From the IMG/VR virus record IMGVR_UViG_3300020045_009036, positions 1-44,619 of that record: a DNA stretch of 44,619 nt. One strand, written 5' to 3'. The stretch comes from a virus (taxonomy: Duplodnaviria; Caudoviricetes). Below are positions 5,746 to 41,239 of the stretch, in pieces. A model generated the notes under the pieces. It was not told the origin of the DNA and searched no databases. It saw nothing but the letters and a program-made list of their open reading frames with translations. Every line of letters begins with the position of its first letter. Positions within the stretch are counted from its first letter, which is position 1. Made by a program: the position numbers and the translations under genes.

Positions 5746-6771
5746 ATGAGCAATCAATTAAGCATTATTCAAACACAAAGCAGTTTTTTCATTCCAACGT
5801 TGCAAACGTTTTCAAACATGATTGTGGCGAGTGCCGATGACGGCGTGGAAGTTTCACTGGTTGACTTTGAAACCGTTGAAAACATCGACAACGCTTTAGT
5901 TGCCGCACACGGTTTAAGCCGTTCATGTTTGTATTGGATGCGTGAGAAAAAAGGCTATTTGATTTTAGGTTTTGAAAGTTTTGAAAAGTACGGTGAAGCG
6001 CGATTCGGATTTTCACGCCAACACTTGAACCGTTTAGCAGATGCCCACGCAATTCAAAATGTAATTGAACCAATTGGTGCAAACTCAAAAGAAATCAAAG
6101 AATCGGTATTGCGCCCACTAACAACTGTTTCAGACGATGTGAAAAAACAAATTTGGGACGAAGCCACTGCCAAAGCCGAATCTGAAAATAAAAAAGTGAC
6201 CGCGAAAATGATTGAAGAAGCCGTGGCTCGTCACAAACTCGAAAATGAAACTTTGCAGCACGAATTGATTTGCGCGAATAAAAAACTCGCCAGCGTTCAA
6301 TCGATTGATGTTGAATCAATTATCGAATCAAAAGTGAAAGAAGTCGAATCCGAAATGCAAGCGCGATTCGATTCTGTTCAAGACAAATTGTCGAAAGCGA
6401 TTAACGATAAAGTGAAACTTGAAAACCAAATCAAAGACGCTGGCACAAGCGACGTTGAAGCAGCAAAAGCAGAGCTTGAAAAATTGAATCGTGAAATCGA
6501 AGCCCAACAAGCACGAAAAGACGAATTGAATTACCAACTCGAACAAACTTATAACGATCGTAATGCAAATGAAGAAATTAACACCAACTGCGAAACCTTG
6601 CGTGAACAAATGGCGTTGGTCATGGCGCAACTTCACGGCGTGAAAGGCGTGGCTAAAAACTTATACGAAGAAACCAACGCGCAAATTCACGGCACAGCAG
6701 AAATGCTTGAACAATTCGCGGAACAGTTACGGCATTTTGCGACTGACAACGCAGAATTTTCAATGATTTAA
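5746..6771 (+). CDS. HTH DNA-binding protein (DUF3102/KorB-like region) with long C-terminal coiled coil
   Basis: AGGAGG RBS; GFESFEKYGEARFGFSRQHLNRL HTH, KESVLRPL, VTAKMIEEAV, then heptad-rich E/K/Q region. Confidence 0.65.
   Translation: MSNQLSIIQTQSSFFIPTLQTFSNMIVASADDGVEVSLVDFETVENIDNALVAAHGLSRSCLYWMREKKGYLILGFESFEKYGEARFGFSRQHLNRLADAHAIQNVIEPIGANSKEIKESVLRPLTTVSDDVKKQIWDEATAKAESENKKVTAKMIEEAVARHKLENETLQHELICANKKLASVQSIDVESIIESKVKEVESEMQARFDSVQDKLSKAINDKVKLENQIKDAGTSDVEAAKAELEKLNREIEAQQARKDELNYQLEQTYNDRNANEEINTNCETLREQMALVMAQLHGVKGVAKNLYEETNAQIHGTAEMLEQFAEQLRHFATDNAEFSMI
6066..6081 (+). repeat. 16-bp quasi-palindrome copy 1 (TGAACCAATTGGTGCA)
   Basis: Exact match to the copies at 37141, 38849 and 40976; encodes EPIGA. 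Confidence 0.9.
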
Positions 6772-6780
6772 AAAAATCCG

Positions 6781-6807
6781 CTGCGAGCATTTTTGCTCGC
6801 AGTTTTT
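6781..6807 (+). terminator. intrinsic terminator
   Basis: CTGCGAGCA-tttt-TGCTCGCAG followed by TTTTT. Confidence 0.7.
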
Positions 6808-6827
6808 CAACACAAAGCGAGATAAAA

Positions 6828-7499
6828 ATGAGTAATCAAACAGGTATCAAAAAACAGATTTTAAAAGAATTGGCAAAAAACAAATCAGGATTAACCAATT
6901 TTGAGCTTTCTGAAAAATTAGGTTTAACGCGGGGGCAGGTTAGTGATTCGTTGCGTGAATCATCCGTCACCAATTATGTGACCAAGGGCGAAAATTTAGG
7001 GGCGGAAGGAATCAATTACACTATTTCAAATTCGGGTTTAGCGTACTTAAAAAGAAACGGTGAAAAAAGTCCTTTAGCACAAGCTGAAAAAACACCTGTT
7101 GAAACGGTTGAAGCCGCGCCGATTGTGGTAGAAAGCGTTTTACCTCAAATCGAAAATGAACCAGTTATTAAAGAATCTTTAACAACTGAAATTGAAAATG
7201 TTGCAAGTCGTATGAATCCAATTCAAGAAAGCGCGTTGCATGATTTTGAAAAGCATCTTGATGTTAAAAATAACGTCCCAGGAAACGTTTTGTTGAATCC
7301 TGAATTGTTTGAATTAGTAAAAACAATCGATGAAAACAACGCGAGAATTTATGAATTATTCACTAAAAAACCAAAGAAAATTATTTTTAATCGTGAAAAC
7401 AAAATCAATGAATTGCATAAACTTTGCGGGTCAGGGGTTTTGAATAACAGCACGGTTGTGATTTTGAATGAAATTATTGGCGATTTACAGGTGGCATGA
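6828..7499 (+). CDS. protein with N-terminal winged-helix domain
   Basis: ILKELAKNKSGLTNFELSEKLGLTRGQVSDSL...YTISNSGLAYL. Confidence 0.6.
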   Translation: MSNQTGIKKQILKELAKNKSGLTNFELSEKLGLTRGQVSDSLRESSVTNYVTKGENLGAEGINYTISNSGLAYLKRNGEKSPLAQAEKTPVETVEAAPIVVESVLPQIENEPVIKESLTTEIENVASRMNPIQESALHDFEKHLDVKNNVPGNVLLNPELFELVKTIDENNARIYELFTKKPKKIIFNRENKINELHKLCGSGVLNNSTVVILNEIIGDLQVA

Positions 7500-7738
7500 T
7501 GAACACAGCCGAAGACTTAAAAAAAGAATTCGGCAGGTTTCCAAAACTTGCCGATGTTGCGAAAGTGTTTTTGGGGATTGAAGATGCAGTTACCCTTTCG
7601 CGTTTAGCAGGAAGTGGAAAATTGCCCTTCCCTGCTTTTCGTGTCGGAAGTGAAAAATCACCGTGGATTGTTGATGTGAAATACTTAGCGGAATTTATCG
7701 ACAAAAGGTCGATTGAAGCAAAACAATCGACAAGGTAA
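7496..7738 (+). CDS. PrtN-family DNA-binding protein, candidate excisionase/RDF
   Basis: MNTAEDL..EFG..PKL.DV...FLG......GKLPFPAFR.GSEKSPW.V....LAEFIDKR. Confidence 0.75.
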   Translation: MMNTAEDLKKEFGRFPKLADVAKVFLGIEDAVTLSRLAGSGKLPFPAFRVGSEKSPWIVDVKYLAEFIDKRSIEAKQSTR

Positions 7739-7794
7739 AAAATAATTTTCATAATTACAGCCCGCGCTGTACCTATGTTCTATGTGTTATTTTG

Positions 7795-7854
7795 TTTGTA
7801 TATACAAATATATTTTTATGATTGTATTTACAAACACAAAATAACCATTATAAT
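7795..7854 (+). promoter_or_regulatory. sigma70-like promoter of the moron, with an operator-like site
   Basis: TTTACA (7827)-16 bp-TATAAT (7849); TACAAATATATTTTTA (7803-7818); palindromes TTTGTATATACAAA and TTGTATTTACAA. Confidence 0.55.
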
Positions 7855-7912
7855 AGCCACAACTTCAAAAGAAGTTGCCGCCCGCTGAGGTTACAGCGAA
7901 GAGGATAAGAAA

Positions 7913-8362
7913 ATGTCACAATTCACGTTTAGTCATTCTAAAAACCCAGTTTTAGAATCAAATACATTCACCACCTTCCCACAAACATCTTTCTTAGATG
8001 CAAAAGAAAACGCTAAAAAAGCTGTTGATGCTTTTTTGAATGGCGAGTATTTCTGCACAGAAAGCAAAAACATTTCTGCATCAAGCGGTTATTACGGATT
8101 CCGTACATTAAGCATTCGCGGCGAAACATTTGCATCTTTAAACACAAGCACAAACGCGATTTTGGTTTATGGTGCAGGCTCTTATGCTAATCCTTTTTCA
8201 ACAGAAATTTTAAAAGAACTTAAAAAAGTCGTTGCACCAGTGAAAGTTGACCGTGCAAAAGTGATGCGTCGCGCTTGGGAAATTGCAAAAGCAAACGAAT
8301 TAAAATGGGGAAATAAATATTTTTCACAGTCTTTAAAGCAAGCATGGGCTGAATTGAGATAA
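7913..8362 (+). CDS. hypothetical protein (moron)
   Basis: GAGGATAAGAAAATG start; C-terminal VMRRAWEIAK...FSQSLKQAWAE motif common in phage ORFs. Confidence 0.7.
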   Translation: MSQFTFSHSKNPVLESNTFTTFPQTSFLDAKENAKKAVDAFLNGEYFCTESKNISASSGYYGFRTLSIRGETFASLNTSTNAILVYGAGSYANPFSTEILKELKKVVAPVKVDRAKVMRRAWEIAKANELKWGNKYFSQSLKQAWAELR

Positions 8363-8421
8363 AAATTTCAAGAGTTCCCGTAAGGTCTCTTGAAAACCTT
8401 GCATCTTTTGAGGATAAGAAA

Positions 8422-8748
8422 ATGAGTGGGAAAATTGAGGTGGTTGCTTATTATAAGGAGCAACAGGTTGGCACAAAAGAAGTTGAAGAGTATGACTTTA
8501 TCAGCGAAGAGTTTGTAAAAGTAACTGCTCCACCTTGGAAAATGGAACGCTTTGAAGTGGGTAATGCGCCCGAATTACCTTGTCAGGTAATATGCAAAAT
8601 TGAAGAAAAAGGGTATTTTTCTTGCACACTTGGCAAAGATTATCGCTATACAAGACCAAGCCGCGAAGGCTTTACAGTATCAAGCCAAGACTTAGATTAT
8701 CTTGCGATTGGCGTTGTAACTCATGCGATAGAAAAGGCGGCTTTATGA
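8422..8748 (+). CDS. hypothetical protein (moron)
   Basis: Identical GAGGATAAGAAAATG start context. Confidence 0.7.
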   Translation: MSGKIEVVAYYKEQQVGTKEVEEYDFISEEFVKVTAPPWKMERFEVGNAPELPCQVICKIEEKGYFSCTLGKDYRYTRPSREGFTVSSQDLDYLAIGVVTHAIEKAAL

Positions 8749-9173
8749 GTGTTGATTTGGATGCTTACATCAAAGAATGGCTAGACGAAAATTCGCGCTA
8801 TGGAAACTCAAAAGTTTGGTTGCACTATAAAGACGGGCGCACTATGTCAGGCGGTATGATACGCGAGCTTGAAAAGGCAAAGGCTTATGCGTATGGAATT
8901 ATTGGCGTTCCCGATGTGGAATTTGTTAATTCACTGAACAAAGATTCTGAATTTTCACAGCGTAAGCAATTTTTACAACCTTTTATCGAAGGTAAAAATC
9001 GGGCAGAATCGATGCTTGATAATAAAATCGCCGTCAAAAGGGGGTCAGTTTTGGATTCTGTTTTGCAAGTAAGAGTGAGTAAGGATGAAAAAGCGGCTTT
9101 TTTCAAAGCGGCAAATGGGCGTAAATTATCGGAATGGATAATCGAGACACTAAAAAAAGAAGCGAAAATATAA
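8745..9173 (+). CDS. protein with C-terminal ribbon-helix-helix domain
   Basis: Likely start MSVDLDAY (ATGA overlap); LQVRVSKDEKAAFFKAANGRKLSEWIIETL. Confidence 0.65.
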   Translation: MSVDLDAYIKEWLDENSRYGNSKVWLHYKDGRTMSGGMIRELEKAKAYAYGIIGVPDVEFVNSLNKDSEFSQRKQFLQPFIEGKNRAESMLDNKIAVKRGSVLDSVLQVRVSKDEKAAFFKAANGRKLSEWIIETLKKEAKI

Positions 9174-9176
9174 ACT

Positions 9177-9202
9177 AAAGCCGCCTAATCAGCGGCTTTT
9201 TT
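9177..9202 (+). terminator. intrinsic terminator
   Basis: AAAGCCGC-ctaatca-GCGGCTTT plus T run. Confidence 0.8.
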
Positions 9203-9210
9203 ATTGCAAT

Positions 9211-9404
9211 TTTGGACAGATGAAACGCGCTAAACCTTTTAGATTATATAATTTCGCTCCAATCTAGCATCGGTGCAACGCAAAAGCGGTGAGATAGTTT
9301 TTCTTTGTTTATCATGGGTTAAGTTTGTTTGAATTTGTGCGAATTTGTCTATATTTGAAAGTTTTGGACGGATATAATTCCGATAGTTTTATCATCTGTC
9401 CAAA
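9211..9404. other. attP of DusA-associated integrase, with arm-type repeats
   Basis: Contains a dusA 5' homology core; TTTGGACAGATGA (9211-9223) is inverted at 9392-9404; related TTTGGACGGAT at 9363-9373. Confidence 0.8.
9244..9315 (-). pseudogene. dusA: replacement 5' end of tRNA-dihydrouridine synthase A carried in attP
   Basis: Translates MINKEKLSHRFCVAPMLDWSEII*; RFxVAPMLDW is the conserved DusA N-terminal motif. Confidence 0.85.
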
Positions 9405-9415
9405 GAGAGTAAAAA

Positions 9416-10423
9416 ATGGCATCTATTATCAAGCGTACCAAAGCAAACGGCGACATTGTTTTCGATTGCGTGATTAAAATGCGACATAACGGAATTTTAC
9501 ACCGTGAATCAAAAACCTTCTTAAAAGAAAAACTCGCTAAAGATTACGCCATGCGCCGTGAGTTGGAATTGCAAGAAAATAGCGTCTACAAAACTCGCGT
9601 ATTTTTATCCGTTGGGGACGTGATTCAAAAGTATATTGACGAATTCAAACCCGAAGGACGTAGCAAAATAAACGACCTCAAGCAACTATTGCGGCGCGAA
9701 ATTTCAAAATTTAACGTCCATAAACTCACCGCGAAAGATTTAATCGCCCACATTCGCCAACGCAACACCGAATGCCAACCGCAAACCGCTCAGAACGATT
9801 TGATTTGGTTGAATACCGTCATTTCGACAATGAAAGGCGTGATTGATTTGGATACCGACTTAACCATTTTTCAATCAGCTCGTGAAGTTTTGCGACGAGA
9901 AGGTTTAATTGCGAGTTCAACGCAACGTGAACGCCGACCAACGGCAAAAGAATGTTGGCAATTATCGCGGTATTTTCATGCTAACAATTACAAGATGTTG
10001 CATTTGATTTGGTTTGCGATTTATTCCGCACGCCGTCAAAGTGAAATCATGAAATTGCGCTGGGAAGATTTGAACCACGATGACCGCACGATTTGGGTGC
10101 GTGATTTGAAAGACCCACGCAAAAAAGGCGTGAAGCGAAAATGTAAATTGCCGCGTGGTGCTTATAAAATCATCATGAAACAACCCCAAAACGGCGCGTT
10201 GATTTTCCCTTTTAATGGCAAATCAATCGGCGCAAATTTTACTCGCGCCTGTAAATTTTTGGGGATTGAGGATTTACATTTTCACGATCTAAGGCATCAT
10301 GCAACATCAAGCCTGTTTGAGCGTGGCTTATCAATCCAACAAGTTCAGCTCGTTACGTTACATTCAAGTTGGCAAACATTACAGCGTTATTGCAATATGT
10401 CAGCAGGTGACTTGGATATTTAA
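9416..10423 (+). CDS. int: tyrosine integrase, DusA-associated (Rci-related) family
   Basis: R(RQSEI), K(DP), HDLRH, H, Y catalytic residues; N-terminal ESKTF..AKDY; adjacent dusA att core. Confidence 0.92.
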   Translation: MASIIKRTKANGDIVFDCVIKMRHNGILHRESKTFLKEKLAKDYAMRRELELQENSVYKTRVFLSVGDVIQKYIDEFKPEGRSKINDLKQLLRREISKFNVHKLTAKDLIAHIRQRNTECQPQTAQNDLIWLNTVISTMKGVIDLDTDLTIFQSAREVLRREGLIASSTQRERRPTAKECWQLSRYFHANNYKMLHLIWFAIYSARRQSEIMKLRWEDLNHDDRTIWVRDLKDPRKKGVKRKCKLPRGAYKIIMKQPQNGALIFPFNGKSIGANFTRACKFLGIEDLHFHDLRHHATSSLFERGLSIQQVQLVTLHSSWQTLQRYCNMSAGDLDI

Positions 10424-10432
10424 GAGAGAGAA

Positions 10433-10966
10433 ATGGCAAAGAAAAAGAAAAGTTTTATCGGTGTTTTATTTATGTTTCTGATAAGTGTTGCAGGAATTTT
10501 CTCTCTTGTCCTGATTGCGTATGTTTTTTTCCATACATTTCCCGCAATGTTTAAGTTTTTTATATTGGGAATCGTTGCGCTGGCAGCGTGGTTTTTTTAT
10601 AAAAAAAGACGGGTGGAAACACCAGAAGAAATACGGACAAGATTTGGTTACACATCTGATGTCCAGCAAAATTATTCGCCAACACAATATACTCCACCAG
10701 TCACAACGCCAACACGAAGAACGCGCAAACCTTCTAAAAAATTACATTTGCAAATTGACTATATCGACAACGATGGTATTGAAACATCGCGCGAGATTGT
10801 GATTTCAGGAAAAACAAAAGTTGATAATTATTACATTCATGCAAAATGCTTACTTAGAAATGAACAGCGTATGTTTAAAATTCACATGGTTCAACATTGT
10901 TTTAATCCAGAAACAGGCGAATTCGTATCTGATATAAAAAAATATGTTGACGATTTTTATAGTTAA
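10433..10966 (+). CDS. two-TM membrane protein with C-terminal WYL-like domain
   Basis: Two N-terminal TM helices, P/T-rich linker, LQIDYID.DG..T.REI...YIHAKCLLRNEQRMFK. Confidence 0.65.
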   Translation: MAKKKKSFIGVLFMFLISVAGIFSLVLIAYVFFHTFPAMFKFFILGIVALAAWFFYKKRRVETPEEIRTRFGYTSDVQQNYSPTQYTPPVTTPTRRTRKPSKKLHLQIDYIDNDGIETSREIVISGKTKVDNYYIHAKCLLRNEQRMFKIHMVQHCFNPETGEFVSDIKKYVDDFYS

Positions 10967-10980
10967 GGCTTAACCTATTT

Positions 10981-11050
10981 GCGAGCTTCAAACTCATTCA
11001 ATAGCGTTACCCACACACGAAAGCCATGTGGTTTTTTTATGCCTATCAGT
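10981..11050 (+). ncRNA. c4-like antisense RNA (cassette 1)
   Basis: TTGACG (10947)..TAACCT (10971) promoter; GAGCTTCAAAC and TTCAATAG are complementary to CTATTGAA and GTTTGAAGCTC at 11124-11144; CCACA..TGTGG stem plus TTTTTTTATGCC as in P1/P7 c4-type leaders. Confidence 0.65.
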
Positions 11051-11194
11051 TTAGTAATTCGCCATTCATGGTAGAATTACATCGTGATTAGGAGTGCCAA
11101 TCTGGTAACACTTGGCGCAGTATCTATTGAACTGTTTGAAGCTCCTAATCGCTCCCTCGGGAGTAACTTCAAAAAAACAATAGGAAAATTCATC

Positions 11195-12085
11195 ATGTAT
11201 ACAATGTCACTCGCCATTTCTGGCACTTCAATTCGTCAAGATTCAAACGGTCGTTTTTGCTTAAACGATTTACACAAATCCGCTGGTGGTGAAAAACTAC
11301 ATCAACCTTCAAACTGGTTAAGAATGCAGCAAACCATTGATTTAATTTCAGTCCTCGAATCTGAGGAGTGCAAAACAAAACCACTTGAAGTAATAAATGG
11401 CGGTAATAATCGCGGCACATTCGTTGTTAAAGAGTTGGTTTATGCTTATGCAACTTGGATTAGTGCAAAATTCTTTTTGTCAGTCATTCGCGCTTACGAT
11501 TCGTTAGTTTCAAAACCTGCTTACGCCTTGATTGATTTGGCATCAATCAACACAGCCCAACGCGGCGTATTAAGTGCAATCGTTTCTGAAATCGCCACAT
11601 CAAGCGGCAAAGAAGGCACAACCAAAGTGGCGTTATGGTCGCGTTTTTCAACGCATTTCAAATTGAATGGTTTCAAAGAATTACCTGCCATCAAATTCGA
11701 TGAAGCAAAAAGTTATCTTGAAAATTTACGCGCTGAATACGATAGAGGTTTTACGCTTGCGGTGGTAAAAAAGGACGATTTACAAACATTGGGGTATGAC
11801 AACGAAACGAAAATGTTTGCGCTTCGTGCATTACCCAATGAGAAACAGCCAACATCAACATGGCAAAATCACGCGACGATGATTTTAACCAGCCATGAAG
11901 ATGCGACTTACACAATTCAATATCACAAAGGCATTTCAGTGATTATGAAGCAACCTGAAAACGTGATGATTGGCACGCCTGAAAATATCATCCGTGATTT
12001 AACTGCAATGGGTTATCACGTTGTGAAAGATAACCCTGAAAACAAACTCGAAACGATTGTGAAAATTGCAGGTTTTGTGGCTTAA
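11195..12085 (+). CDS. antirepressor-like protein: KilA-N + ORF6C-like + extra C-terminal domain
   Basis: IRQDSNGRFCLNDLHKSAG...PSNWLR...GTFVVKELVYAYATWISAKF (KilA-N); LWSRFSTHFK...ELPAIKFDEAKSYL (ORF6C-like); AGGA RBS before ATG 11195. Confidence 0.85.
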   Translation: MYTMSLAISGTSIRQDSNGRFCLNDLHKSAGGEKLHQPSNWLRMQQTIDLISVLESEECKTKPLEVINGGNNRGTFVVKELVYAYATWISAKFFLSVIRAYDSLVSKPAYALIDLASINTAQRGVLSAIVSEIATSSGKEGTTKVALWSRFSTHFKLNGFKELPAIKFDEAKSYLENLRAEYDRGFTLAVVKKDDLQTLGYDNETKMFALRALPNEKQPTSTWQNHATMILTSHEDATYTIQYHKGISVIMKQPENVMIGTPENIIRDLTAMGYHVVKDNPENKLETIVKIAGFVA

Positions 12086-17198: not shown

Positions 17199-19344
17199 CA
17201 ATATCACCTCTGCACTCGATGGCAAAATTAAAATCAGGGTCAGTCGCTGTGCCTTGTGAAATTGTTTGAACGCACCAAAATGGAGCTGACGCGCTGTAAG
17301 TGTTGAAGCGAATCACGTTACCCGCTGACCAGCCACCACCGAAACCATTAGCCGCAATCGTAAAATAGGGCTGTGCCGTATGCGGATTGATAGGCGCAAG
17401 GTTAATCGAAACACTTTGATTCGTTGCAATCGCACCTAAGTGTTCGCCAATTACGTCAAACGTGGTGGCGGTTTTGAACAGTAAAATCCAACGGTCGGTC
17501 GGTGTATCGTGATTTGATACCACAATCGGATAGTCGATTTGGTTGAATTGCGCGGTCGTGCTTGACCCAATAAGCGTATCACTCCAAACATTTGTCCAAG
17601 TCTGCTGGTCAAAAGGTGTGCTTGCGGTGGCTTGTAAATCACCGTGATACATACAGTTTGAAACAACCGTATTTAGAATGGGAAAATCATGCGTGACAGG
17701 TTTGTAAAGCGACAGGACGTTATCCACAACAGACTGAACCAAGCCAAAATCTTCAATTCTGTCGATGATAGTTAGCGGCTGTGATAAACCTGAAACGCTT
17801 GTAAATGTAATTGTGCCAGCGGTTAAATCAGTCGTAAATTTTGATTCATCAATCAGATTTTTAGCCGCATCACGAACTGATATTTTGGCTAAATGGGTGC
17901 GTGTCAACGTGACGGTTTGCGCGGCGGAATATGTTCCGACGGTTTCTTTGTCGTTGATGATTGCCACGATGTCACCACTCAAAAACGCTTTGCGTGGCTG
18001 TTTGACGCGGTATGTGATTCGGATGTCTTTCCCTGCCGTCAAGGATTGCACTACTGACGATGTGGCAAGTACCAACGTACCTAGTTTTTCATCTTTTGAA
18101 TAATATGTTGGGCTGGTAAGAACCGACCAAACACCATCAAATTTATACTCAACCTTGATGCTGATTAAGTCGATTTCTGGCAATTGAATGGTTACGCCTG
18201 TTGCATATCTACCAATTATTTCTTTGTCGATGTAACCATCTTCTGCGAATTCCGCCGTGTTAATGCCTAAAATTGAATAGCTTAAAATGATGCCGTCAAC
18301 GGTTGGAATAACCACATTACTATTGCTTGCAACGGTGATTGATGCGGCATTATTTGAAATTGCAGAGGTGATTTTTTTAGCTGTGTATAACTGTTTTGAT
18401 GTAACTGTGCTGTATGTTGTATAGGCAGGGATTACGGTTGTGCTACCGTCTGCGCTAATCGCCCAAAAATGCGTGGAATCCATGCTCGAAAGCCACGTTG
18501 ATTTTGTTGCTGCGGTTGCGCCGCTGTATGTGTGCGTCAATGCGCTTGAAAGCGTCAGTGTGGCAAAGTATTTCTTTTTTGGTGACTTTACAATTGTTCC
18601 AGAACCAGTTTCGTTAATTAGGTAATCTGGGCTGTTTGATGCCGTTGAATAGCTTGTTGTATCAATATCTGGATCAACATAATTGGTAATTTGTACGTTC
18701 GTGACCGTGACAACTTCATTGTTTCCAGACGTAACATCTTTTAGATAAAATTTGTTTTTGAAAAAGTAGGTTAATCCATCAATCCCATAAACCGCCTCGT
18801 CGTAACATCCATCAAAACCAAATACTTTTAAGGTCGTTGCGCCCGCTGTTTGTGTCCCATCAAGAAACGCATCAAATGATGAATTTGTAAGGCTTAAATG
18901 ATATTCGGTCGGGAACAATGTACTCGCACTATCCAGATTGAACTTTTTAAAATCGGCAGATACAACCGTTGGCGGTGTGACGACAGTTGTTGAATCGTGC
19001 AAAGTGCTAACCGCTGATGTTTTGGTATCAATCACACGCGCATTAACTGTATCAAAATAACCTTGCGTTTTGACTAAATTGACGTTGATTTTTTCGTCGG
19101 GCGGCAATTTGCTAATGTAAGTTAATGCCGCAAACAGCTTGTCATTATTGGGTGACTTGCACGCCATAAACATTTTGCGTTGGTTCACTTTCCCATAAGC
19201 GCGGTCGGGTTCGCTCACATCGTCAAAAATGTTATTGCTTGCGCCGTCGATGATTGCGTTTGTCGTCATGCCACCGCCGCCATTTGCAGCGTTTGACATG
19301 ACTTCGGATTCGTAGATTTTTAAGTCATTGATTGTAATTGACAT
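17188..19344 (-). CDS. large tail structural protein
   Basis: MSITINDLKIYESEVM....GGG.M...NNIFDDVSE.DRAYG.V..RK N-terminus; GGGWSAGNVIRFNT...RGDID C-terminus. Confidence 0.75.
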   Translation of the reverse strand: MSITINDLKIYESEVMSNAANGGGGMTTNAIIDGASNNIFDDVSEPDRAYGKVNQRKMFMACKSPNNDKLFAALTYISKLPPDEKINVNLVKTQGYFDTVNARVIDTKTSAVSTLHDSTTVVTPPTVVSADFKKFNLDSASTLFPTEYHLSLTNSSFDAFLDGTQTAGATTLKVFGFDGCYDEAVYGIDGLTYFFKNKFYLKDVTSGNNEVVTVTNVQITNYVDPDIDTTSYSTASNSPDYLINETGSGTIVKSPKKKYFATLTLSSALTHTYSGATAATKSTWLSSMDSTHFWAISADGSTTVIPAYTTYSTVTSKQLYTAKKITSAISNNAASITVASNSNVVIPTVDGIILSYSILGINTAEFAEDGYIDKEIIGRYATGVTIQLPEIDLISIKVEYKFDGVWSVLTSPTYYSKDEKLGTLVLATSSVVQSLTAGKDIRITYRVKQPRKAFLSGDIVAIINDKETVGTYSAAQTVTLTRTHLAKISVRDAAKNLIDESKFTTDLTAGTITFTSVSGLSQPLTIIDRIEDFGLVQSVVDNVLSLYKPVTHDFPILNTVVSNCMYHGDLQATASTPFDQQTWTNVWSDTLIGSSTTAQFNQIDYPIVVSNHDTPTDRWILLFKTATTFDVIGEHLGAIATNQSVSINLAPINPHTAQPYFTIAANGFGGGWSAGNVIRFNTYSASAPFWCVQTISQGTATDPDFNFAIECRGDIDAA

Positions 19345-19358
19345 GGTTTTCCGTGTGT

Positions 19359-24059: not shown

Positions 24060-24093
24060 GTGTGTTACTCCAATTAAGTAAAGACTGAATCGA

Positions 24094-25509: not shown

Positions 25510-25511
25510 GA

Positions 25512-26072
25512 TTAACTCCAAAATTGAATAAGTTGTGATTGGGTTGTTGTGGTTAGTGAGTTGCCGAAGAAGTGCGAGGATGTACCAGTAACAGGCACAC
25601 TGGTTTTCCAATTGTAAAAACCTAATGTCAGTTTTGGGACAAAGTTATCCCCTGGGATGACGATGCCCTGTCCTGTCGTAGGGGTTTTCAAAGAACTTCC
25701 CACTACAGGCACACTGGTTTTCCAATTGTAAAAACCTAATGTCAGTTTTGGGACAAAGTTATCCCCTGGGATGACGATGCCCTGTCCTGTCGTAGGGGTT
25801 TTCAAAGAACTTCCCACTGCAGGCACACTGGTTTTCCAATTGTAAAAACCTAATGTCAGTTTTGGGACAAAGTTATCCCCTGGGATAACGATGCCCTGTC
25901 CTGTCGTAGGGGTTTTCAAAGAACTTCCCACTGCAGGCACACTGGTTTTCCAATTGTAAAAACCTAATGTCAGTTTTGGGACAAAGTTATCCCCTGGGAT
26001 GACGATGCCCTGTCCTGTCGTAGGGGTAGCAGGACTTGCATAAACTGTTGAGAGTAAAACAGGCGTAATCAT
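25512..26072 (-). CDS. protein made of about four tandem 38-aa repeats
   Basis: TPTTGQGIVIPGDNFVPKLTLGFYNWKTSVP(A/V)VGSSLK x3.8. Confidence 0.7.
   Translation of the reverse strand: MITPVLLSTVYASPATPTTGQGIVIPGDNFVPKLTLGFYNWKTSVPAVGSSLKTPTTGQGIVIPGDNFVPKLTLGFYNWKTSVPAVGSSLKTPTTGQGIVIPGDNFVPKLTLGFYNWKTSVPVVGSSLKTPTTGQGIVIPGDNFVPKLTLGFYNWKTSVPVTGTSSHFFGNSLTTTTQSQLIQFWS
25591..26027. repeat. 114-bp tandem direct repeat, about 3.8 copies
   Basis: Units start at 25591, 25705, 25819 and 25933; only two variable positions seen. Confidence 0.95.
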
Positions 26073-28464: not shown

Positions 28465-28466
28465 GA

Positions 28467-29171: not shown

Positions 29172-29183
29172 GATTTTTCCTGA

Positions 29184-29507: not shown

Positions 29508-29512
29508 GATGG

Positions 29513-30425: not shown

Positions 30426-30429
30426 GTGT

Positions 30430-30899: not shown

Positions 30900-30948
30900 A
30901 ATTCATTCCTAACAGTTGCCGCGCTACGTTTAAGGCGCGGCGGGTAAA

Positions 30949-31281: not shown

Positions 31282-31284
31282 GAC

Positions 31285-34657: not shown

Positions 34658-34659
34658 GA

Positions 34660-34875
34660 CTACAGCCCCTTACTCGTGACGAAATTTATCGCACGGCTAC
34701 GGGTGCGCGTGTCGGTTTGAGCAACCCCTAAATCGGCGCGAATAAGGTCACGCGCTTTTATCATGTCATTGGTTGACTGATAGCGCACACTGCGGTCACG
34801 GAATCGGACTTCAAGTTGTCCCGATGCAATTGCCGTGTTTATTATAGTTAGGTCGTCTGTCGTAAATTCACTCAT
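34660..34875 (-). CDS. gpW-like head completion protein
   Basis: AIASG...V...DRSV.Y.S; immediately upstream of the portal. Confidence 0.8.
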   Translation of the reverse strand: MSEFTTDDLTIINTAIASGQLEVRFRDRSVRYQSTNDMIKARDLIRADLGVAQTDTRTRSRAINFVTSKGL

Positions 34876-34884
34876 AGTGGCGAC

Positions 34885-34930
34885 AGATTACAGAAGGGCT
34901 TGTGTAATTTTCTACCCTAGTTTTTACACA
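34885..34930 (-). promoter_or_regulatory. candidate activator-dependent late promoter
   Basis: Inverted TGTGTAA...TTACACA (34901-34930) upstream of a TAATCT -10 box with no -35; a Mor/C-like gene is present. Confidence 0.45.
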
Positions 34931-34950
34931 AAATGATTTTTTATAGGCAC

Positions 34951-34990
34951 AAAAAAAGCCCTCGAACCAGTGACGGCGCGAGGGCTTTTT
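34951..34990 (-). terminator. intrinsic, possibly bidirectional, terminator
   Basis: AAAAAAAGCCCTCG...CGAGGGCTTTTT. Confidence 0.75.
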
Positions 34991-35001
34991 GTTGTTTTTC
35001 T

Positions 35002-35106
35002 TTACTTCAAAAGAATCATCACAATGGCAAAAGCAATCATTGCTTTTATACAAAATAGGTCAATGTCAATTTTAATCAGCCTTTTTTCAATTTCATAGTC
35101 GCTCAT
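35002..35106 (-). CDS. 34-aa peptide with hydrophobic C-terminus (not in ORF track)
   Basis: MSDYEIEKRLIKIDIDLFCIKAMIAFAIVMILLK*; ATGA overlap with the HNH gene. Confidence 0.4.
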   Translation of the reverse strand: MSDYEIEKRLIKIDIDLFCIKAMIAFAIVMILLK

Positions 35107-35945
35107 TTCATCACCTCATAATCAAAAATCGATTGTTGTTTTAACTTCATGTGAACACCTGCCAGTTTTGCGTGATTGCGTTTCACGCGCTGTTGAATTT
35201 GCACAGGTGGCATTTTGTCACGCTTCAACAAATTATCCTTAGCCCACAACGGTTGCAAATTGCTGTAATGATTCAAGCGCAAAACATCTTCTTCGGTTTT
35301 GGCTGATGCTATTGGAATAATGTGGTCAATGTGCCACTTATCACGATTATCCCAATTCATGCCGTCCACAAATTGCGCCTCAAGATGCGCGGCAAAGGTT
35401 TCATAATCACAACCCAAAATTTTATGCGTGCGAGATTTTTTGGTGTATTTTTTTCTTTTTAGTGACTCTCTAATAGAGTGGGTAATCCGATTTTTTAGCA
35501 CATAAATAGGATTATTTTTTCTTTCTTTTTTCTTCCAAGCGCGAGATGCTTCCCTTACTTTTTCAAGATTCCTTTTATGCCAAGCGCGTAATGTTTCCCT
35601 TATTTTTTCAGGATTCGCTTTACGATAAGCGCGATGACGTTCACTAATTTTTTCAAAATTTTCTATATAGTAATTGAGTTGATATTCCCTTACTTTTTCA
35701 TGATTCGCTTTACGATAAGCACGATTACGTTCCCTTACTTTTTCAGGATTCGCTTTACGATAAGCACGATCACGTTCACTAATTTTTTCAGGATTCGCTT
35801 CACAATAAGCGCGTTGACGCTCTTTATGGCATTTTTTACAAATGCTAATAAATCCGAATTTGTATCTACTGTTTTTATAAAAACAACTAAACTCTAATTC
35901 CAGTTTGCATTTTGAACAGACTTTTGTTTTTATTTCTTTTGCCAT
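35103..35945 (-). CDS. HNH homing-type endonuclease with 15-aa repeats
   Basis: CSKC..CKKC zinc finger, AYRKANPEK(I/V).ER.R repeats (45-bp period), GMNWDN..WHIDHIIP...HYSNLQPLWA.DN. Confidence 0.85.
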   Translation of the reverse strand: MAKEIKTKVCSKCKLELEFSCFYKNSRYKFGFISICKKCHKERQRAYCEANPEKISERDRAYRKANPEKVRERNRAYRKANHEKVREYQLNYYIENFEKISERHRAYRKANPEKIRETLRAWHKRNLEKVREASRAWKKKERKNNPIYVLKNRITHSIRESLKRKKYTKKSRTHKILGCDYETFAAHLEAQFVDGMNWDNRDKWHIDHIIPIASAKTEEDVLRLNHYSNLQPLWAKDNLLKRDKMPPVQIQQRVKRNHAKLAGVHMKLKQQSIFDYEVMK

Positions 35946-36008
35946 TCCAACCTCCAAAACTTTCACAAACCACCACGCCACAATCAACGCGGTGGCATTC
36001 GTCAAACG

Positions 36009-36716
36009 TTACGCAACAAATTTCGCCGAAACGATTTTACCAATCGTATCCAATTTATTTTGCGGGTCATCTTTGATGACGTGATAACCCAAAATTTTCA
36101 ATTCACGAATGACGTGTTCAGGCGTTCCGACTAACACATCGGGTTCAATTGAATTGATGACCGTTGTACCCGCATGATTTGTCATCATCCAACGCAATCG
36201 TTGGTCGGCTGGCAACGCTAACATCATCGTCGCATATTCACCCCATGCAAGTGGTTTAGGTGGAACTTTTCGTAAACGCTCCAATTCACGTTTTGAAATT
36301 AGCGTCATGCGGTCATCAGTTGGAAGGTCACGCAAGGCGTTTGGAACGTGCTGATTTTTCGTAAAATAGAAATCCTCCAAACGGTCTTGAACTGCCCAAG
36401 CGTTGTCGGTGTCCAAAATTTTAGCGTGGCGAACTGTGCCGCGTTCTGTCCAAAGGTATAAACTTTTCGTGAATTTATTGATTATTAGCTGACCAACTTT
36501 CAGTTGGTTAGCTTTGAAAGCTCTTAAATCTGCGCCTTTCAGTAAAAAATAATGCACACCTTCGATAAATCGACTGGCATTTCTAGCGAAGTTCATTTGA
36601 ATGTTATCAATTGCTGTACCGTAAATTTCAGCAAGCAATTCGGTTGTGATGACAGGTTGATTTTGCCACATGATGGCGGGGAGTGTTTCTGGAGTTACTG
36701 CAATTGAATTAGTCAT
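36009..36716 (-). CDS. ORF6N-domain antirepressor-like protein
   Basis: QPVITTELLAEIYG...NF.RN..RFIEGVHYF.L...LYLWTERG..RHAKILDTD.AW.V...LED.YF. Confidence 0.88.
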   Translation of the reverse strand: MTNSIAVTPETLPAIMWQNQPVITTELLAEIYGTAIDNIQMNFARNASRFIEGVHYFLLKGADLRAFKANQLKVGQLIINKFTKSLYLWTERGTVRHAKILDTDNAWAVQDRLEDFYFTKNQHVPNALRDLPTDDRMTLISKRELERLRKVPPKPLAWGEYATMMLALPADQRLRWMMTNHAGTTVINSIEPDVLVGTPEHVIRELKILGYHVIKDDPQNKLDTIGKIVSAKFVA

Positions 36717-36872
36717 TTCTGACTCCTATTTGTTTTTACTAAATTAAGCCACCGAAGTGGCGGTTAGGAGCTTAGTAACAGTCAAAAAGGATACTGCGAC
36801 AGATATTCAATATATTCTCTGCCACTCCTAACGCGCTGGCGCAATTTTACCATTAAATAGCGAATTGCAAAA

Positions 36873-36947
36873 ACTGGTAGGTACAAAAAAACCGCGTGAT
36901 TATCGTATGCGGGTAACGCCTTTTAGACTGGTTACTAAGCCAGTGCT
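36873..36947 (-). ncRNA. c4-like antisense RNA (cassette 2)
   Basis: TTGACA-17 bp-TAACAT promoter (36995-36967); GCTTAGTAACCAGTCTAAAAGG is near-complementary to the downstream CCTTTTTGACTGTTACTAAGC (36790-36770); GCGGTTTTTTTGTACC tail. Confidence 0.65.
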
Positions 36948-36999
36948 TTCACTTGAAAGCGGGGGGATGTTAAACCCGCATGATGAGCTTGTCAAACTG

Positions 37000-37167
37000 T
37001 TACATTAGCTTTCTTTTTTCAGCTTCCGCGATTAGCTCTGTAAGTCGCAATTGTAATTCTTGTGAATTCATAATTTTTGCATCATGCGTGAGCTGGTAAA
37101 TTTCACGGATTAAATCCGTATCGTGTTGCGTGATTTGTTTTGCACCAATTGGTTCAGATTGTTCCAT
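37000..37167 (-). CDS. 55-aa hypothetical protein (not in ORF track)
   Basis: MEQSEPIGAKQITQHDTDLIREIYQL...KRKLM*; fills the gap in the operon. Confidence 0.55.
   Translation of the reverse strand: MEQSEPIGAKQITQHDTDLIREIYQLTHDAKIMNSQELQLRLTELIAEAEKRKLM
37141..37156 (-). repeat. 16-bp quasi-palindrome copy 2
   Basis: TGCACCAATTGGTTCA on the plus strand. Confidence 0.9.
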
Positions 37168-37357
37168 TTTGGAGTTCCCGTCGAATGTGCATCATTTTTT
37201 CTAAATACACACAAAAATCCATGGCTTCGTCTTGGGCGTGTTGTAACCGTTCATCAAAAATTAAATCTTCGCGTTCCATTGAAACGCCGTATTTATTCAA
37301 GCCAAATTCAGCGCGTTCTTTTATTTTTTCGCAAACTACATCTTCAATTTTGCTCAT
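37154..37357 (-). CDS. small all-alpha protein, MazG/nucleotide pyrophosphohydrolase-like
   Basis: Start MSKIED with AGGAG RBS; R...G..KYG...R.DL....LQHAQDEAMD..VYLEK. Confidence 0.5.
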   Translation of the reverse strand: MSKIEDVVCEKIKERAEFGLNKYGVSMEREDLIFDERLQHAQDEAMDFCVYLEKMMHIRRELQNGTI

Positions 37358-37370
37358 GTGGGTTTTCTCC

Positions 37371-37862
37371 TTAATACGGAACATCATCGTTATAACGTGG
37401 TGGCGTACCATTTCTTGCGGCTTGATACGCCGCGCCGCTTTGTTGTGGCGGTGGCTGTTGATATTGTGGCGCAGGTTGTGGTGCATAAGCCGCTGGCGGA
37501 TACGGGTCTGCTTGGTGACTTTCATAAGCGGATTGTTGATTTTCAGAACGTTTACCGCCGACTAAATCCAAAATATCAGCGTTCACTTCGAGTTGAAAAC
37601 CTTTTGTACCATCGTTTTTCGTATATTCATTGACGTTTAACTCACCAGAAATAAATACAGCTTGTCCTTTCTTGAGATATTCAGCCAATGAACCTTCTGC
37701 GCGTTTTCCCCATAAGACAACACGAAGCCAGTTTGTTTTTTGTTTATCACCAAAGCCCGTATTGTTGGCAACCGATACATTTAAAACGGCTTGACCACTG
37801 GGTGTGTATTTGACGGTTGCATCTTGACTGACGTTACAGACAGCGGAAAAAACATTACTCAT
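37371..37862 (-). CDS. ssb: single-stranded DNA-binding protein
   Basis: WLRVVLWGKRAE...YLKKGQAVFISGEL; acidic tail DDVPY. Confidence 0.92.
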   Translation of the reverse strand: MSNVFSAVCNVSQDATVKYTPSGQAVLNVSVANNTGFGDKQKTNWLRVVLWGKRAEGSLAEYLKKGQAVFISGELNVNEYTKNDGTKGFQLEVNADILDLVGGKRSENQQSAYESHQADPYPPAAYAPQPAPQYQQPPPQQSGAAYQAARNGTPPRYNDDVPY

Positions 37863-38293
37863 GCGCTAACACCCGTTGAACCAAAGCCACCCGTGTCACG
37901 GTCTGTTTTATTGAGTGCATCGACCTCAATAAAACTAACTAATTCCACTTTGCTAATCACCATTTGCGCGATTTTGTCACCACGTTTAAAACTGTGTGGT
38001 TCGTTGTCAAAATTCTTTAAAATCACACCGATTTCGCCACGGTAACTGCTATCAATTGTGCCTGGTGAATTTAAAACCGTGATGCCTTGCTTTAAAGCTA
38101 AACCAGAACGCGGGCGGATTTGCATTTCGTAACCTGTTGGTATTTCGATTGCAATGCCTGTTTTAATCAGCGCGTGTTCACCAACCAATAAGGTAAAATC
38201 GTCAATGCAATGCAAATCCATTCCTGAATCAGTTGCATAAGCGCGTTGTGGAATAATCGCGTTTTCTTGAAGTTTTTGAATTTTAAAAATCAT
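37859..38293 (-). CDS. dut: trimeric dUTPase
   Basis: GMDL, RPRSGLA, GTIDSSYRGE, GDKIAQ, R..GGFGSTG motifs. Confidence 0.95.
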   Translation of the reverse strand: MIFKIQKLQENAIIPQRAYATDSGMDLHCIDDFTLLVGEHALIKTGIAIEIPTGYEMQIRPRSGLALKQGITVLNSPGTIDSSYRGEIGVILKNFDNEPHSFKRGDKIAQMVISKVELVSFIEVDALNKTDRDTGGFGSTGVSA

Positions 38294-38305
38294 ATTTAAA
38301 GCCTC

Positions 38306-38515
38306 TTATCGTTGATGTTGTGGGTAATGCGTGCTTTCAAGTGATTCGGTTAAACCACAATCGACACATTTTTTTTCTTTTGTCGATTCGTAGCGTGCAA
38401 AGTTTGGATGTTCACATTCATCATCTTTATCGTGTCTGACAACATAATTAACAAACCAAAAGATGATAAATATGAAAACAACTGCAAACCAAAAAGCTGC
38501 TGATAAACTCATTAT
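38306..38515 (-). CDS. small TM protein with Cys/His motif
   Basis: Hydrophobic N-terminus, then CEH...CVDCG. Confidence 0.55.
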   Translation of the reverse strand: MMSLSAAFWFAVVFIFIIFWFVNYVVRHDKDDECEHPNFARYESTKEKKCVDCGLTESLESTHYPQHQR

Positions 38516-38525
38516 TACGTCCTCG

Positions 38526-38777
38526 TTATCTAAAATTTTTAACAATTTTGTACACGCTATTGACCGTTAAACTGAATTCACGCGCAATTCGTGCTGGCGC
38601 AACGCCCTGGGTGTGAAGTTTTGAAATCTGAGCATTACGTTCTTCAAACGGGATCGCAACATAAACACTACTGCCGCCAAACGGATTTAGTAATTCACAG
38701 GTAATTTTATTTATCATGTCGTTATCGTCGGTGTATTGGCTAACCACTTTTTTAACGTGTTCATTAAATTCACTCAT
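38526..38777 (-). CDS. Mor/C-like transcription activator
   Basis: FGGSSVYV...ERNAQI......IAREFSLT..SVYKIV. Confidence 0.7.
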   Translation of the reverse strand: MSEFNEHVKKVVSQYTDDNDMINKITCELLNPFGGSSVYVAIPFEERNAQISKLHTQGVAPARIAREFSLTVNSVYKIVKNFR

Positions 38778-40660
38778 TTAAGATAGCTCGATTGTTTTTT
38801 GATGATGGTTTTTTTAGGCGGTGCAACAGGTGACAAATTTTCACCCGTTGCACCAATTGGTTCAGATTTGGTAATTTCACCGACTAATTCTGCCCATTTT
38901 GCTTTCGTGTAATGATGCAAACGCAATTCGTGATGATGCGCGGCGGCATAAGCGTAGACGTAAGTATCAAGCGGTTCATTTCGCGCCCCGCGTTTGTTCA
39001 CAAAACGCCCTGTTTTTGGGTCGAATGTTTCAGAGGTGAAACCTGCGAAAAATTCACGCTCTAATTGTTCGCTGAAATGCAAGGCGCGTTCATCCGTTTC
39101 TTTGTCGGCATCGGCAGATAAACGAGCAAAGATTTTGTGTTTGATTTGAATCGTGCCGACGTGTTGAATGTGAACGCCAAACTTGTTGAGTTGTCCGCGA
39201 AAATTTACGTCGGTGGCTTTGGGTTTTGAAAGCACAGGCGCGGTGGTTGACGTTGCACCAAAAATAGCTAACGGGCGTTTGATTTGTTTGCGGCGCACAT
39301 AATCCTTGACGGCTTCGGTTCGATGTCCACCTGCGTCAATAGCCGTTGCAATAATTGCTAGTTTTTTGCCGTTTTCACATTCGATGGGCGTGTTGAGTAA
39401 TTTGGTGAGTTCATTCCAAACATGATCCTCAGCAGGGTCGCCGAGTAATTCAACGTAATCCAACACCCACGATTTCATGCCAACGCCCCAGCCAACAATT
39501 TGTACGGCAATGCGGTTGTCTTGGGTATCTACGCCACACGTTATTGCGCCAACGCCATACGGTGCAATGCGTAGCGGATAGTTTTCAGCGCGTTCAGCAA
39601 TCACATTCATTTTGATTGAACGCATGAGCGGGTCTTCAAAGGCTTCCGCTAAATAATCATTGATAAAGGTTTTTAATCGCGCGGTATCGCCTTGGCAATC
39701 AAGCCACATTTCAACCAATTCAACCCAGCGAATACCTAAACCAATCGGGTAATAAAGACAATTTGCCGTGTAACCGCGTAATTTACCATTGGGATTTTCA
39801 GCAACCCAACGACCGCGTGCGATTAAATCTGTTTTTTGATGTTCGTAAATTTCGCCTTCGCATTCACGGCAAACATAACGCACATTGGTTGCGCCTTTTT
39901 CCCATTTCAGATTTTGCCAAACTAACGGTTGTTCATGGTTGCAGTGTGGACAAGCAATGTAATAGCGGCGTTGGTCAGATTTTTCATAGAGTTGTTCCGT
40001 GCGGCTTAAACCTTTGATTTGTGGCGTGGACGCAAACAACACTTTGTATGTTGATCGGTAAGAGGTTGTGCGACCAAGTAACATATCAACAGGATCATCC
40101 GCGCCCGATAAGTTTTGCGCGAAAGTGTCTAATTCATCCACTAACAGAATTTTGACTGCCGTGGATTTGAGACGGGCGGGTGAGCCTGCGTGTTCTAAAT
40201 ACAGTTGCCCACCGTTGAAGTCTTTGAACCACTTGGTATTTGCACTTTCGCGACTGGCGTTGGTGGTGAGAATTTCAGTAACGAGCGGGGTTTCTTCAAT
40301 CAACGGTTTTAATTTTTGATTGTTGAATTTGGTCATCGACACTTCGGACGGGAAACACAGCATCATCGGCGCGGGAGCTTCAACCATCGTGTACGCCATG
40401 ATGTTGCTGAGTATTTCTGATTTTCCGATTTGAATCGGCAGCATTAAAACTACTTGCTGCACATTTGAGCGCGACGAAAAGCAATCCATGATTTCGCGTT
40501 GAATTGGATTGCTATCGGTTCGCCATGCACCCGCTTTGCCCGACGTTTTATTCGACAACACGCGATACAAATCCGCCCATTCGCTCACGCTGATATGTTT
40601 GCGTGGGGCGAATGCACGCGAAAGCGCGTTGTAGATTTTTTCTTTGGCGTTTAAGTACAT
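38774..40660 (-). CDS. terL: terminase large subunit, lambda GpA family
   Basis: SVSEWAD, QIGKSE Walker A, LLVDELD, STP, CPHC, GVDTQD, RNEPLD. Confidence 0.95.
   Translation of the reverse strand: MYLNAKEKIYNALSRAFAPRKHISVSEWADLYRVLSNKTSGKAGAWRTDSNPIQREIMDCFSSRSNVQQVVLMLPIQIGKSEILSNIMAYTMVEAPAPMMLCFPSEVSMTKFNNQKLKPLIEETPLVTEILTTNASRESANTKWFKDFNGGQLYLEHAGSPARLKSTAVKILLVDELDTFAQNLSGADDPVDMLLGRTTSYRSTYKVLFASTPQIKGLSRTEQLYEKSDQRRYYIACPHCNHEQPLVWQNLKWEKGATNVRYVCRECEGEIYEHQKTDLIARGRWVAENPNGKLRGYTANCLYYPIGLGIRWVELVEMWLDCQGDTARLKTFINDYLAEAFEDPLMRSIKMNVIAERAENYPLRIAPYGVGAITCGVDTQDNRIAVQIVGWGVGMKSWVLDYVELLGDPAEDHVWNELTKLLNTPIECENGKKLAIIATAIDAGGHRTEAVKDYVRRKQIKRPLAIFGATSTTAPVLSKPKATDVNFRGQLNKFGVHIQHVGTIQIKHKIFARLSADADKETDERALHFSEQLEREFFAGFTSETFDPKTGRFVNKRGARNEPLDTYVYAYAAAHHHELRLHHYTKAKWAELVGEITKSEPIGATGENLSPVAPPKKTIIKKQSSYLK
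38849..38864 (-). repeat. 16-bp quasi-palindrome copy 3
   Basis: TGCACCAATTGGTTCA in the disordered C-terminal tail of TerL. Confidence 0.9.
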
Positions 40661-41239
40661 TTACGCCGCCCCCAATTTCTTAAACAGTTGTGAAAGTTCA
40701 GTTAAAAAACTTTCGTTGTAATCGCGCATCATGGATTTAATGCGGCTTGCATCCGATTCAACAGCAAGTTGTTCGGCTAAAATGTCGGGCTGTGCTTCAA
40801 AACGTGTGCGAATGATTGCCGCCGCACCTGTGATGGCTTTTAAAACATCCTCTGCAACCAGTAACAAACCTGTCGATTGTTCAAATTCTTGTTTGGCTTT
40901 TGCTGCTTTGAATTTTTCATGTTGCGTTTTGTAATCGTGATACGAGCCTTCAACAATGTCAGTGGTGTTATCGAATGCACCAATTGGTTCAACGTCGTCA
41001 TCGTTTTCGGCTTCAATTTTTGAGGCTTTTGCGGCGCGGGCTTTTTCGTGTCGTTCAACAACACCCGCTTTTGATAAATCCGCGCTTTCTGCCATCAACT
41101 TGAGCGACGCATCCACGACAATCTTTTTGCCGCTTTCGTCATAAACTAATCGTCCTAATTTGCCCAAATACGTCACATAAGACGGTTTTTTGTTTAACAG
41201 ACGTGCGAATTCGCTTTTTGTGACGATGTTTTCAGTCAT
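40661..41239 (-). CDS. terS: terminase small subunit (Nu1-like)
   Basis: N-terminal wHTH (TKSEFARLL..KPSYVT.L...GRL), coiled coil; abuts terL. Confidence 0.8.
   Translation of the reverse strand: MTENIVTKSEFARLLNKKPSYVTYLGKLGRLVYDESGKKIVVDASLKLMAESADLSKAGVVERHEKARAAKASKIEAENDDDVEPIGAFDNTTDIVEGSYHDYKTQHEKFKAAKAKQEFEQSTGLLLVAEDVLKAITGAAAIIRTRFEAQPDILAEQLAVESDASRIKSMMRDYNESFLTELSQLFKKLGAA
40976..40991 (-). repeat. 16-bp quasi-palindrome copy 4
   Basis: TGCACCAATTGGTTCA in the acidic linker of TerS. Confidence 0.9.

Follow-up and report, generated by a model that had tools for sequence, protein, structure and literature searches.

A phage protein and the near-palindromic 16-mer in its own gene: a probable DNA-binding pair

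The near-palindromic 16-mer TGAACCAATTGGTGCA and the protein in whose gene it lies were investigated in IMG/VR record IMGVR_UViG_3300020045_009036, a lambdoid temperate phage of 44,619 nt that was used in full (hereafter the window). The 16-mer is present in four exact copies, at 6066-6081 on the plus strand and at 37141-37156, 38849-38864 and 40976-40991 on the minus strand, which confirms the positions reported in an earlier sequence-only reading. Copy 1 lies in a gene (5746..6771, plus strand) encoding a 341-amino-acid (aa) protein with an all-helical N-terminal domain that contains a helix-turn-helix (HTH) and is followed by a long predicted coiled coil. The comparison with related genes suggests that the 16-mer is very probably the DNA target of this protein and is bound by it directly, since direct recognition is the sole reading that explains why both arms of the site change symmetrically, why its codon phase is fixed and why its bases track residues of the recognition helix.

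The repeated 16-mer and the palindromes of related genes

The occurrence of four copies is far beyond chance. The four-copy result was reached in none of 100 dinucleotide shuffles, and Markov models gave an expectation of ~1e-4 copies. The peptide EPIGA, read from all four copies in their open reading frames (ORFs), was seen 4 times against 0.01 expected in 13,241 codons, with P = 1.2e-5 for use of the same five codons in the three further copies. Shuffling of synonymous codons did not yield any 16-mer with three dispersed copies (0/200), TGAACCAATTGGTGCA was the sole 16-mer family with at least three dispersed copies in the window, and no further match was found elsewhere in the window at up to three mismatches.

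The earlier reading had also stressed that the copies are always in the sense orientation and always read as EPIGA. The peptide stands for all four, but it carries little significance (estimated P about 0.1-0.25) because the frame that reads PIG is favoured by chance and the orientation of copy 2 is forced, its first TGA being the stop codon of ORF 37154-37525. The 53 matches to TGAACCAATTGGTGCA in IMG/VR were single and in unrelated genes and are thus attributed to chance; the PIG frame was used in 38 of 44 distinct chance contexts (13 EPIGA, 25 APIGS). Sense orientation and reading frame were therefore rejected as evidence. The KQ that follows copy 2 was likewise rejected as evidence that this copy derives from the HTH gene, KQ being native to the 55-aa gene in which copy 2 lies. 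A likeness to a type I restriction pattern was also set aside, as 9 other such sites occur in the window. Of 401 genomes from the presumed host order, 19 contained the 14-bp core, singly except for one genome with two occurrences, and the core was no commoner than a reversed control, which argues against a host-wide repeat; repeated antisense matches in one conserved host gene among these were set aside.

A sample of 73 relative loci and 29 genome loci gave 83 rows aligned over the helix and the linker that follows it, 31 partial rows being left out. Removal of 24 duplicates gave 59 distinct helix-site pairs, the window included. In 53 of the 59 members the linker carried a 16-bp palindrome in which 7 or all 8 pairs match (37 of them perfect), compared with 7 of 1,218 control windows of the same size in the same genes. 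The 6 weak-palindrome members were removed before the code tables were made. The codon phase of the palindrome was identical in 51 of the remaining 53 genes, which together carry 30 different arms, and the 4-bp centre was mostly self-complementary and did not co-vary with the helix. A palindrome with a 6-bp centre in G285 was excluded from these counts. One relative, L166 (G019), carries two different palindromes in the lengthened linker of its own gene (18987-19056). In L305 (G024:C30) from Allochromatium humboldtianum, three further perfect palindromes lie upstream of the intact gene at 9159-9635, together with a broken DUF3102-like frame just upstream of that gene.

The arm bases were found to follow three helix residues. 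In window numbering, co-variation was strongest between residue 95 and base 2, residue 92 and base 3, and residue 96 and base 5 (z 13.9, 11.4 and 10.4). Tyrosine or histidine at 95 was accompanied by T at base 2 in 32/32 genes, R96 by C at base 5 in 25/27, R92 by G at base 3 in 12/12 and S92 by C in 15/16. Q92, the residue of the window protein, was accompanied by A or C at the position that is asymmetric in the window site; the one asymmetric base is common to all four copies and to a copy in the terminase gene of a prophage in genome G372, and Q92 tolerates asymmetry there. A second set of 136 further proteins, evaluated from codons only and related to the first set rather than composed of independent lineages, gave a palindrome-encodable linker in 88/136 compared with 14/744 control windows, and the same code (Y/H to T in 45/45, N to G in 25/28, R96 to C in 61/64).

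Close relatives were informative in that 70 pairs are at least 80% alike outside the helix and linker and the residue triad differs in 60 of them. The same arm was present in 9 of the 10 close pairs with the same triad compared with 3 of the 60 with different triads. Tree-independent contrasts were all in the predicted direction (4.4:0, 4:0, 4:0 and 2.9:0.3); two control pairings in this test did not agree. The family palindromes and residue-base co-variation support the earlier proposal that selection acts on the DNA. The results likewise bear out that the likely binder's own gene holds the site immediately behind the recognition helix, that the 16 nt after the HTH are palindromic in homologues and co-vary with the helix, and that swapping the gene would swap specificity and site together, helix and site co-varying and travelling together.

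The protein and its comparison with known systems

The predicted recognition helix, starting SRQHLNRL, spans residues 90-107 (6013..6066, plus strand) in a structure model. Residues 41-185 were modelled with a pLDDT (predicted local distance difference test) score of 95.5 as an all-helical domain without beta strands, in which the helix starting SRQHLNRL stops at residue 107; copy 1 encodes E108-A112, the start of the next loop. The coiled coil predicted at approximately residues 150-295 (6193..6630, plus strand) contains 1 proline or glycine in 145 aa, gave weak matches to unrelated coiled coils, and is a probable dimerisation or bridging arm. The gene had been described as an orphan, a view no longer tenable since 755 relatives, counted as clusters at 50% identity, were found at E≤0.001, revealing a large uncharacterised family. 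The protein gave no PHROG match and no meaningful Pfam match, and a sequence search of solved structures returned weak coiled-coil noise only. With tblastn nothing was found in 50,697 phage records, while 14 weak plasmid matches were obtained, and locus searches of viral contigs that started from the window protein or P0001 alone yielded no relative. Fusions to DNA methyltransferases occur in some members of the family, apparently P0107 and P0147, and in the plasmid match H14.

Fold comparison matched the model to the DNA-binding domains of SopB, ParB-parS, KorB, P1 ParB and Spo0J at Z 5.0-6.5, so that a ParB-type DNA-binding fold is a lead from modelling rather than proof. The absence of ParA and of a ParB cytidine triphosphatase (CTPase) domain, stated earlier, was upheld in the window scans. 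Only ~45 residues precede the helical domain, without an arginine-patch motif and without a Pfam match. ParA was not found among the 67 ORFs scanned, nor was a ParA-type Walker motif in six frames of the record, which is incomplete at one end. No membrane tail was seen in the protein, and a C-terminal tail of the RocS/Par type was present in 0/46 family members by a crude test (final 14 residues with two or more F/W and a net positive charge).

By analogy, recognition appears to work as in ParB-parS, Noc-NBS or KorB-OB, while the defining CTPase and ParA features fail. In ParB-parS and Noc-NBS a palindrome of ~16 bp is likewise read by two HTH domains and a few residues switch specificity, as described in PMC7383237, and the model aligns to the ParB DNA-binding domain 6s6h at Z 6.2 with a root-mean-square deviation of 4.3 over 111 aligned residues. 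In contrast to those systems the phage protein has neither a CTPase domain nor ParA, specificity in its family is hypervariable rather than family-conserved, and the site has a constant place in the binder's own gene; the switch residues of ParB and Noc are partly outside the helix (PMC7383237), whereas the co-varying residues of the phage family are helix positions 92, 95 and 96. KorB of RK2 (8qa8, Z 5.3) is comparable in that a ParB-superfamily-like binder has palindromic sites scattered over a mobile element. It differs in acting as a CTP clamp together with KorA and in recognising its operator outside the HTH (PMC11790492 and PMC5016525); the phage protein is without a clamp domain and has a code that maps to the recognition helix. 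The several dispersed palindromic operators typical of KorB-OB have a counterpart in the four copies here, although extras occur in only 4/21 relative records.

N15 is also a temperate phage with few dispersed palindromic sites, one of them inside gene repA, according to PMC2847241 and PMC3235114, and among the ParB-family domains compared with the model, the DNA-binding domain of its SopB gave the highest fold score (3mkw, Z 6.5). N15 differs in that the same sources describe a linear plasmid prophage with SopA and a site in repA, whereas the phage described here integrates, is without SopA and carries the site in the gene of the binder. The single proteins pSK1 Par, RocS and RacA act without an ATPase and have an N-terminal DNA-binding domain followed by a coiled coil, a layout like that predicted for the phage protein, whose composition and weak coiled-coil matches fit it; they are of the MerR-type winged-helix class, and Par and RocS also have a C-terminal membrane helix (PMC11500499). 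Neither a winged helix, judged by the model, nor a C-terminal membrane helix, judged by the crude tail test, was found in the phage protein.

A relationship to DUF3102 (PF11300) is indicated by language-model features (0.95 to DUF3102-containing clusters), by matches of some relatives to phrog_464, and by a palindrome of 7-8 of 8 pairs in or near the post-helix region of 4/5 true DUF3102 proteins. In contrast, the window protein has no PF11300 match at E≤1, only 2 of 93 aligned members match, and alignment by hhalign to a five-sequence DUF3102 profile was not significant (E 0.11). Among publications on DUF3102, judged by titles and the beginnings of abstracts, none concerned DNA binding. The replication origin of phage lambda, ori-lambda, lies in gene O, with iterons as the site and an initiator function for the protein. 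Lambda O is thus also a phage DNA-binding protein with its site in its own gene, both swapping together; it is unlike the present case in its iterons and initiator role, and this phage has a separate O-like gene.

Distribution of sites and gene setting

A 3.9-kb stretch where the packaging operon starts contains copies 2-4, placed around a gene for a Mor-family late transcriptional activator (38526..38777, minus strand) that begins ~70 bp downstream of copy 3. Copy 2 is in a 55-aa ORF (37000..37167, minus strand) that is a real conserved gene, copy 3 in the C-terminal tail of the terminase large subunit (terL, 38774..40660, minus strand; phrog_15) and copy 4 in the linker of the terminase small subunit (terS, 40661..41239, minus strand; phrog_57). 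None of the copies overlaps a predicted promoter in a crude sigma-70 scan.

The terL copy is matched 16/16 in the G372 prophage where the flanks are matched 4/20 and 4/20, is present at 14/16 in symmetric form in L208-L210, and is half-lost in L212/L213. The terS copy has an 11/16 version of the same length, without an insertion or deletion, in L208-L210, and the homologue of the 55-aa gene in G372 is without the site and five codons shorter there. By these alignments the terL copy, intact amid diverged flanks, is thus old and selected, and the copies in the 55-aa gene and terS, absent or diverged in relatives, are lineage-specific. In L208 (3578-5335), terS and terL are separated by an HNH gene and the early part of terL contains an insertion of ~1.1 kb; terL of G285 appears to carry an intein-like insert.

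Homology to relatives stops right after the site both in the 5746-6771 gene and in terL (against L208-L210 and G372). The joint in the gene is at 6083 in 3/4 runs of related strains from two studies, in which the 70 bp following copy 1 (6084-6153) are replaced by 67 other letters; the fourth run, X6, aligns through. The segment 6084-6153 is a possible allele-exchange boundary, and the break after the site may reflect exchange or simply a free linker.

Beyond the in-gene sites, which were left out of this count, 17 extra family-type sites were found in 6/28 relative records with an arm list derived from the same genes, compared with 1 match to reversed-arm controls. Eight have the arms of the resident gene and 9 have foreign arms. 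The related phages G002, G003 and G004 have two to four different sites stacked in the portal gene's C-terminal linker, all in frame (L128 500-650; L131 4600-4720; L133 17370-17500). At a position where G002 and G004 carry sites of their own type, the site in G003 is that of another phage. An integrase-primase-helicase element, G022:C113, carries two own and two foreign copies.

The 67 ORFs of the window were scanned against PHROG, which revealed a repressor at 2995, an excisionase (xis) at 7496, and tail and head genes. The excisionase (7496-7738) and an integrase (9416-10423), both downstream of 5746-6771 on the same plus strand, mark an integrating temperate phage (7496..10423). Two replication modules are on opposite arms: O-like and P-like genes (4278-5436), which start at 4278 and 4942 on the integrase-side strand, and a primase-helicase (42648-44534) placed ahead of the terminase genes. 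The earlier proposal that the sites flank the origin on a circular map was not established, because the record has no terminal repeat and its end falls inside the primase frame. The terL DNA is 88% identical to the prophage terL in G372, a genome of an order that holds a Methylococcaceae bin, and the host is therefore likely a methanotroph.

Other features of the window are an Endonuclease VII/HNH-like gene (35103-36005) with six internal 45-bp repeats, which adjoins an anti-repressor gene and is an insertion between the terminase and portal genes, and a 114-bp tandem repeat at 25591-26027 (3.8 copies, 99% alike) within ORF 25512-26072. A second palindrome family, TACAAATATATTTGTA and variants at 2892, 2925, 3448 and 7803, flanks the repressor gene. 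Sites of this type are beside predicted promoters at 3462 and 7827 and are probably CI operators.

Possible roles of the bound sites

The best reading overall, to which we give roughly an even chance, is that of a fast-diversifying self-tag: a protein that docks on its own DNA. It would bind the 16-mer as a dimer, very probably with one HTH per arm across the unread 4-bp centre. With helix and site within ~70 bp, one mutation cluster or one recombination would alter both, so that specificities could diversify quickly and each element keep a private tag. Through its coiled coil the protein would link tagged sites to one another or bring in a partner while the genome is free and replicating, the benefit being positioning, protection or hand-over to packaging. 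One in-gene site would be enough; this phage would have added three at the head of its packaging operon, and other elements would collect foreign tags. That being bound benefits the DNA carrying the site is held a little less firmly, somewhat short of an even chance. Several observations favour the self-tag: specificity is replaced very rapidly, elements retain perfect sites of foreign type, promoters are free of sites, packaging genes have gained sites in two unrelated lineages, and the domain is succeeded by a long coiled coil.

Several results weigh against this reading. No partner protein was identified. An extra copy of the own site within 10 kb was present in 1/68 loci (7 partial alignments having been removed), and at up to two mismatches in 4/21 whole relative records and 0/4 near-complete ones; the earlier suggestion that the site is planted elsewhere is consequently not supported as a general rule, most relatives carrying no further copy of their own variant. 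Some of the sites counted as foreign are one base off the own arms, and could be relics or subject to cross-reading. In distant pairs (<60% identity) the arm does not follow from the triad alone (3/16), each tree-independent contrast is underpowered with p≥0.125, and in P0001, the nearest protein (64%), the helix is unchanged but the in-gene peptide has disappeared. In the fold comparison Raf1 at Z 7.3 outranks the ParB domains, the scores being middling for a helical domain, and Foldseek with the modelled domain returned nothing at E≤0.001.

The main rival, which we regard as rather unlikely, is a transcriptional roadblock or repressor that would throttle its own operon and hold the packaging operon until late; specificities would diversify against cross-talk of co-resident prophages, and foreign sites would be relics. 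The gene is indeed upstream of xis and int here and of int in G003 and G004, copy 3 lies ~70 bp upstream of the Mor-family activator gene, with the like in L208 and apparently G372, and a single in-gene site suffices in most relatives. KorB also represses from dispersed operators (PMC11790492); its long-range repression needs the CTPase clamp, absent here. That no copy overlaps a predicted promoter in the crude scan argues further against a roadblock, as do the 9 undecayed foreign-type sites, which would be hard to keep if binding were repressive. A ParA-less one-protein partition system like that of pSK1 Par or RocS, segregating a plasmid-state prophage through parS-like sites, is improbable. 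It would accommodate the HTH and coiled-coil architecture and the ParB-like domain suggested by the model, and parallels are described in the literature: one centromere copy is usually sufficient (PMC5016525), a centromere site of N15 is inside repA (PMC2847241), and N15, RK2 and pMF1 are examples of replicons whose sites are dispersed (PMC3235114). Partition is at odds with the integrase and excisionase, the failed tail test, the origin flanking that was not established, and the lack of an extra copy in most relatives, including all four near-complete records. Moreover, Par and RocS are of the MerR winged-helix type (PMC11500499), whereas the model has no strands and leads toward the ParB DNA-binding domain.

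A replication-initiation element inside the gene of its initiator, comparable to ori-lambda in gene O, is highly improbable: relatives do sit among primase, helicase, O-like and recombination genes and one in-gene site is the family norm, but this phage already has O/P-like genes and a primase-helicase, and the site is a single palindrome rather than iterons, with the extra copies in packaging genes. Just as doubtful is a recombination or conversion point copied between loci, at which binding would promote exchange of the specificity cassette rather than tagging. The end of homology right after the site in the gene (6083, 3/4 runs, two studies) and in terL would fit, although loss of homology is expected in the low-constraint linker and tail after the site, and run X6 aligns through the joint. 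The asymmetric base shared by all four copies would fit as well, except that the same form persists amid diverged flanks in G372, which favours selection. Copy 2 resembles a 15-nt gain, and different sites replace one another at one portal-linker position; the terS copy, by contrast, differs from relatives by substitutions without an indel, and the protein has no nuclease or recombinase domain. A host-factor site, or chance or protein-level convergence, is extremely improbable. The host is not certain and the PIG frame is favoured by chance; on the other side, chance is excluded by the shuffles and Markov models, the 14-bp core is not above its reversed control in the host-order genomes, and a host factor would leave 30 arms in 53 genes that track the phage helix unexplained.

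The self-tag may be extended to a widespread system by which phages and satellites distinguish self from non-self, an unlikely and speculative proposal in which the bound protein licenses tagged DNA. Each element would carry a cassette of ~70 bp that specifies a DNA-reading helix together with its palindromic target. The licence would be a benefit in cis, for instance protection or transfer to the packaging machine, and rival elements would steal it with foreign tags, the arms race producing dozens of orthogonal specificities with a code legible in three residues. A description of such a system was not found in the literature searched, most subscription papers and supplements being outside the search. 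The finding would provide a large phage and satellite family without a described function with a predictable DNA target, legible in the sequence of each gene. Because nature offers a series of matched helices and sites, switches of protein-DNA specificity can be tested directly in more than the ParB/Noc pair, and many orthogonal DNA labels could be drawn from the series. Should the arrays of foreign sites stem from exploitation, phages and satellites would be in conflict at a further, new level.

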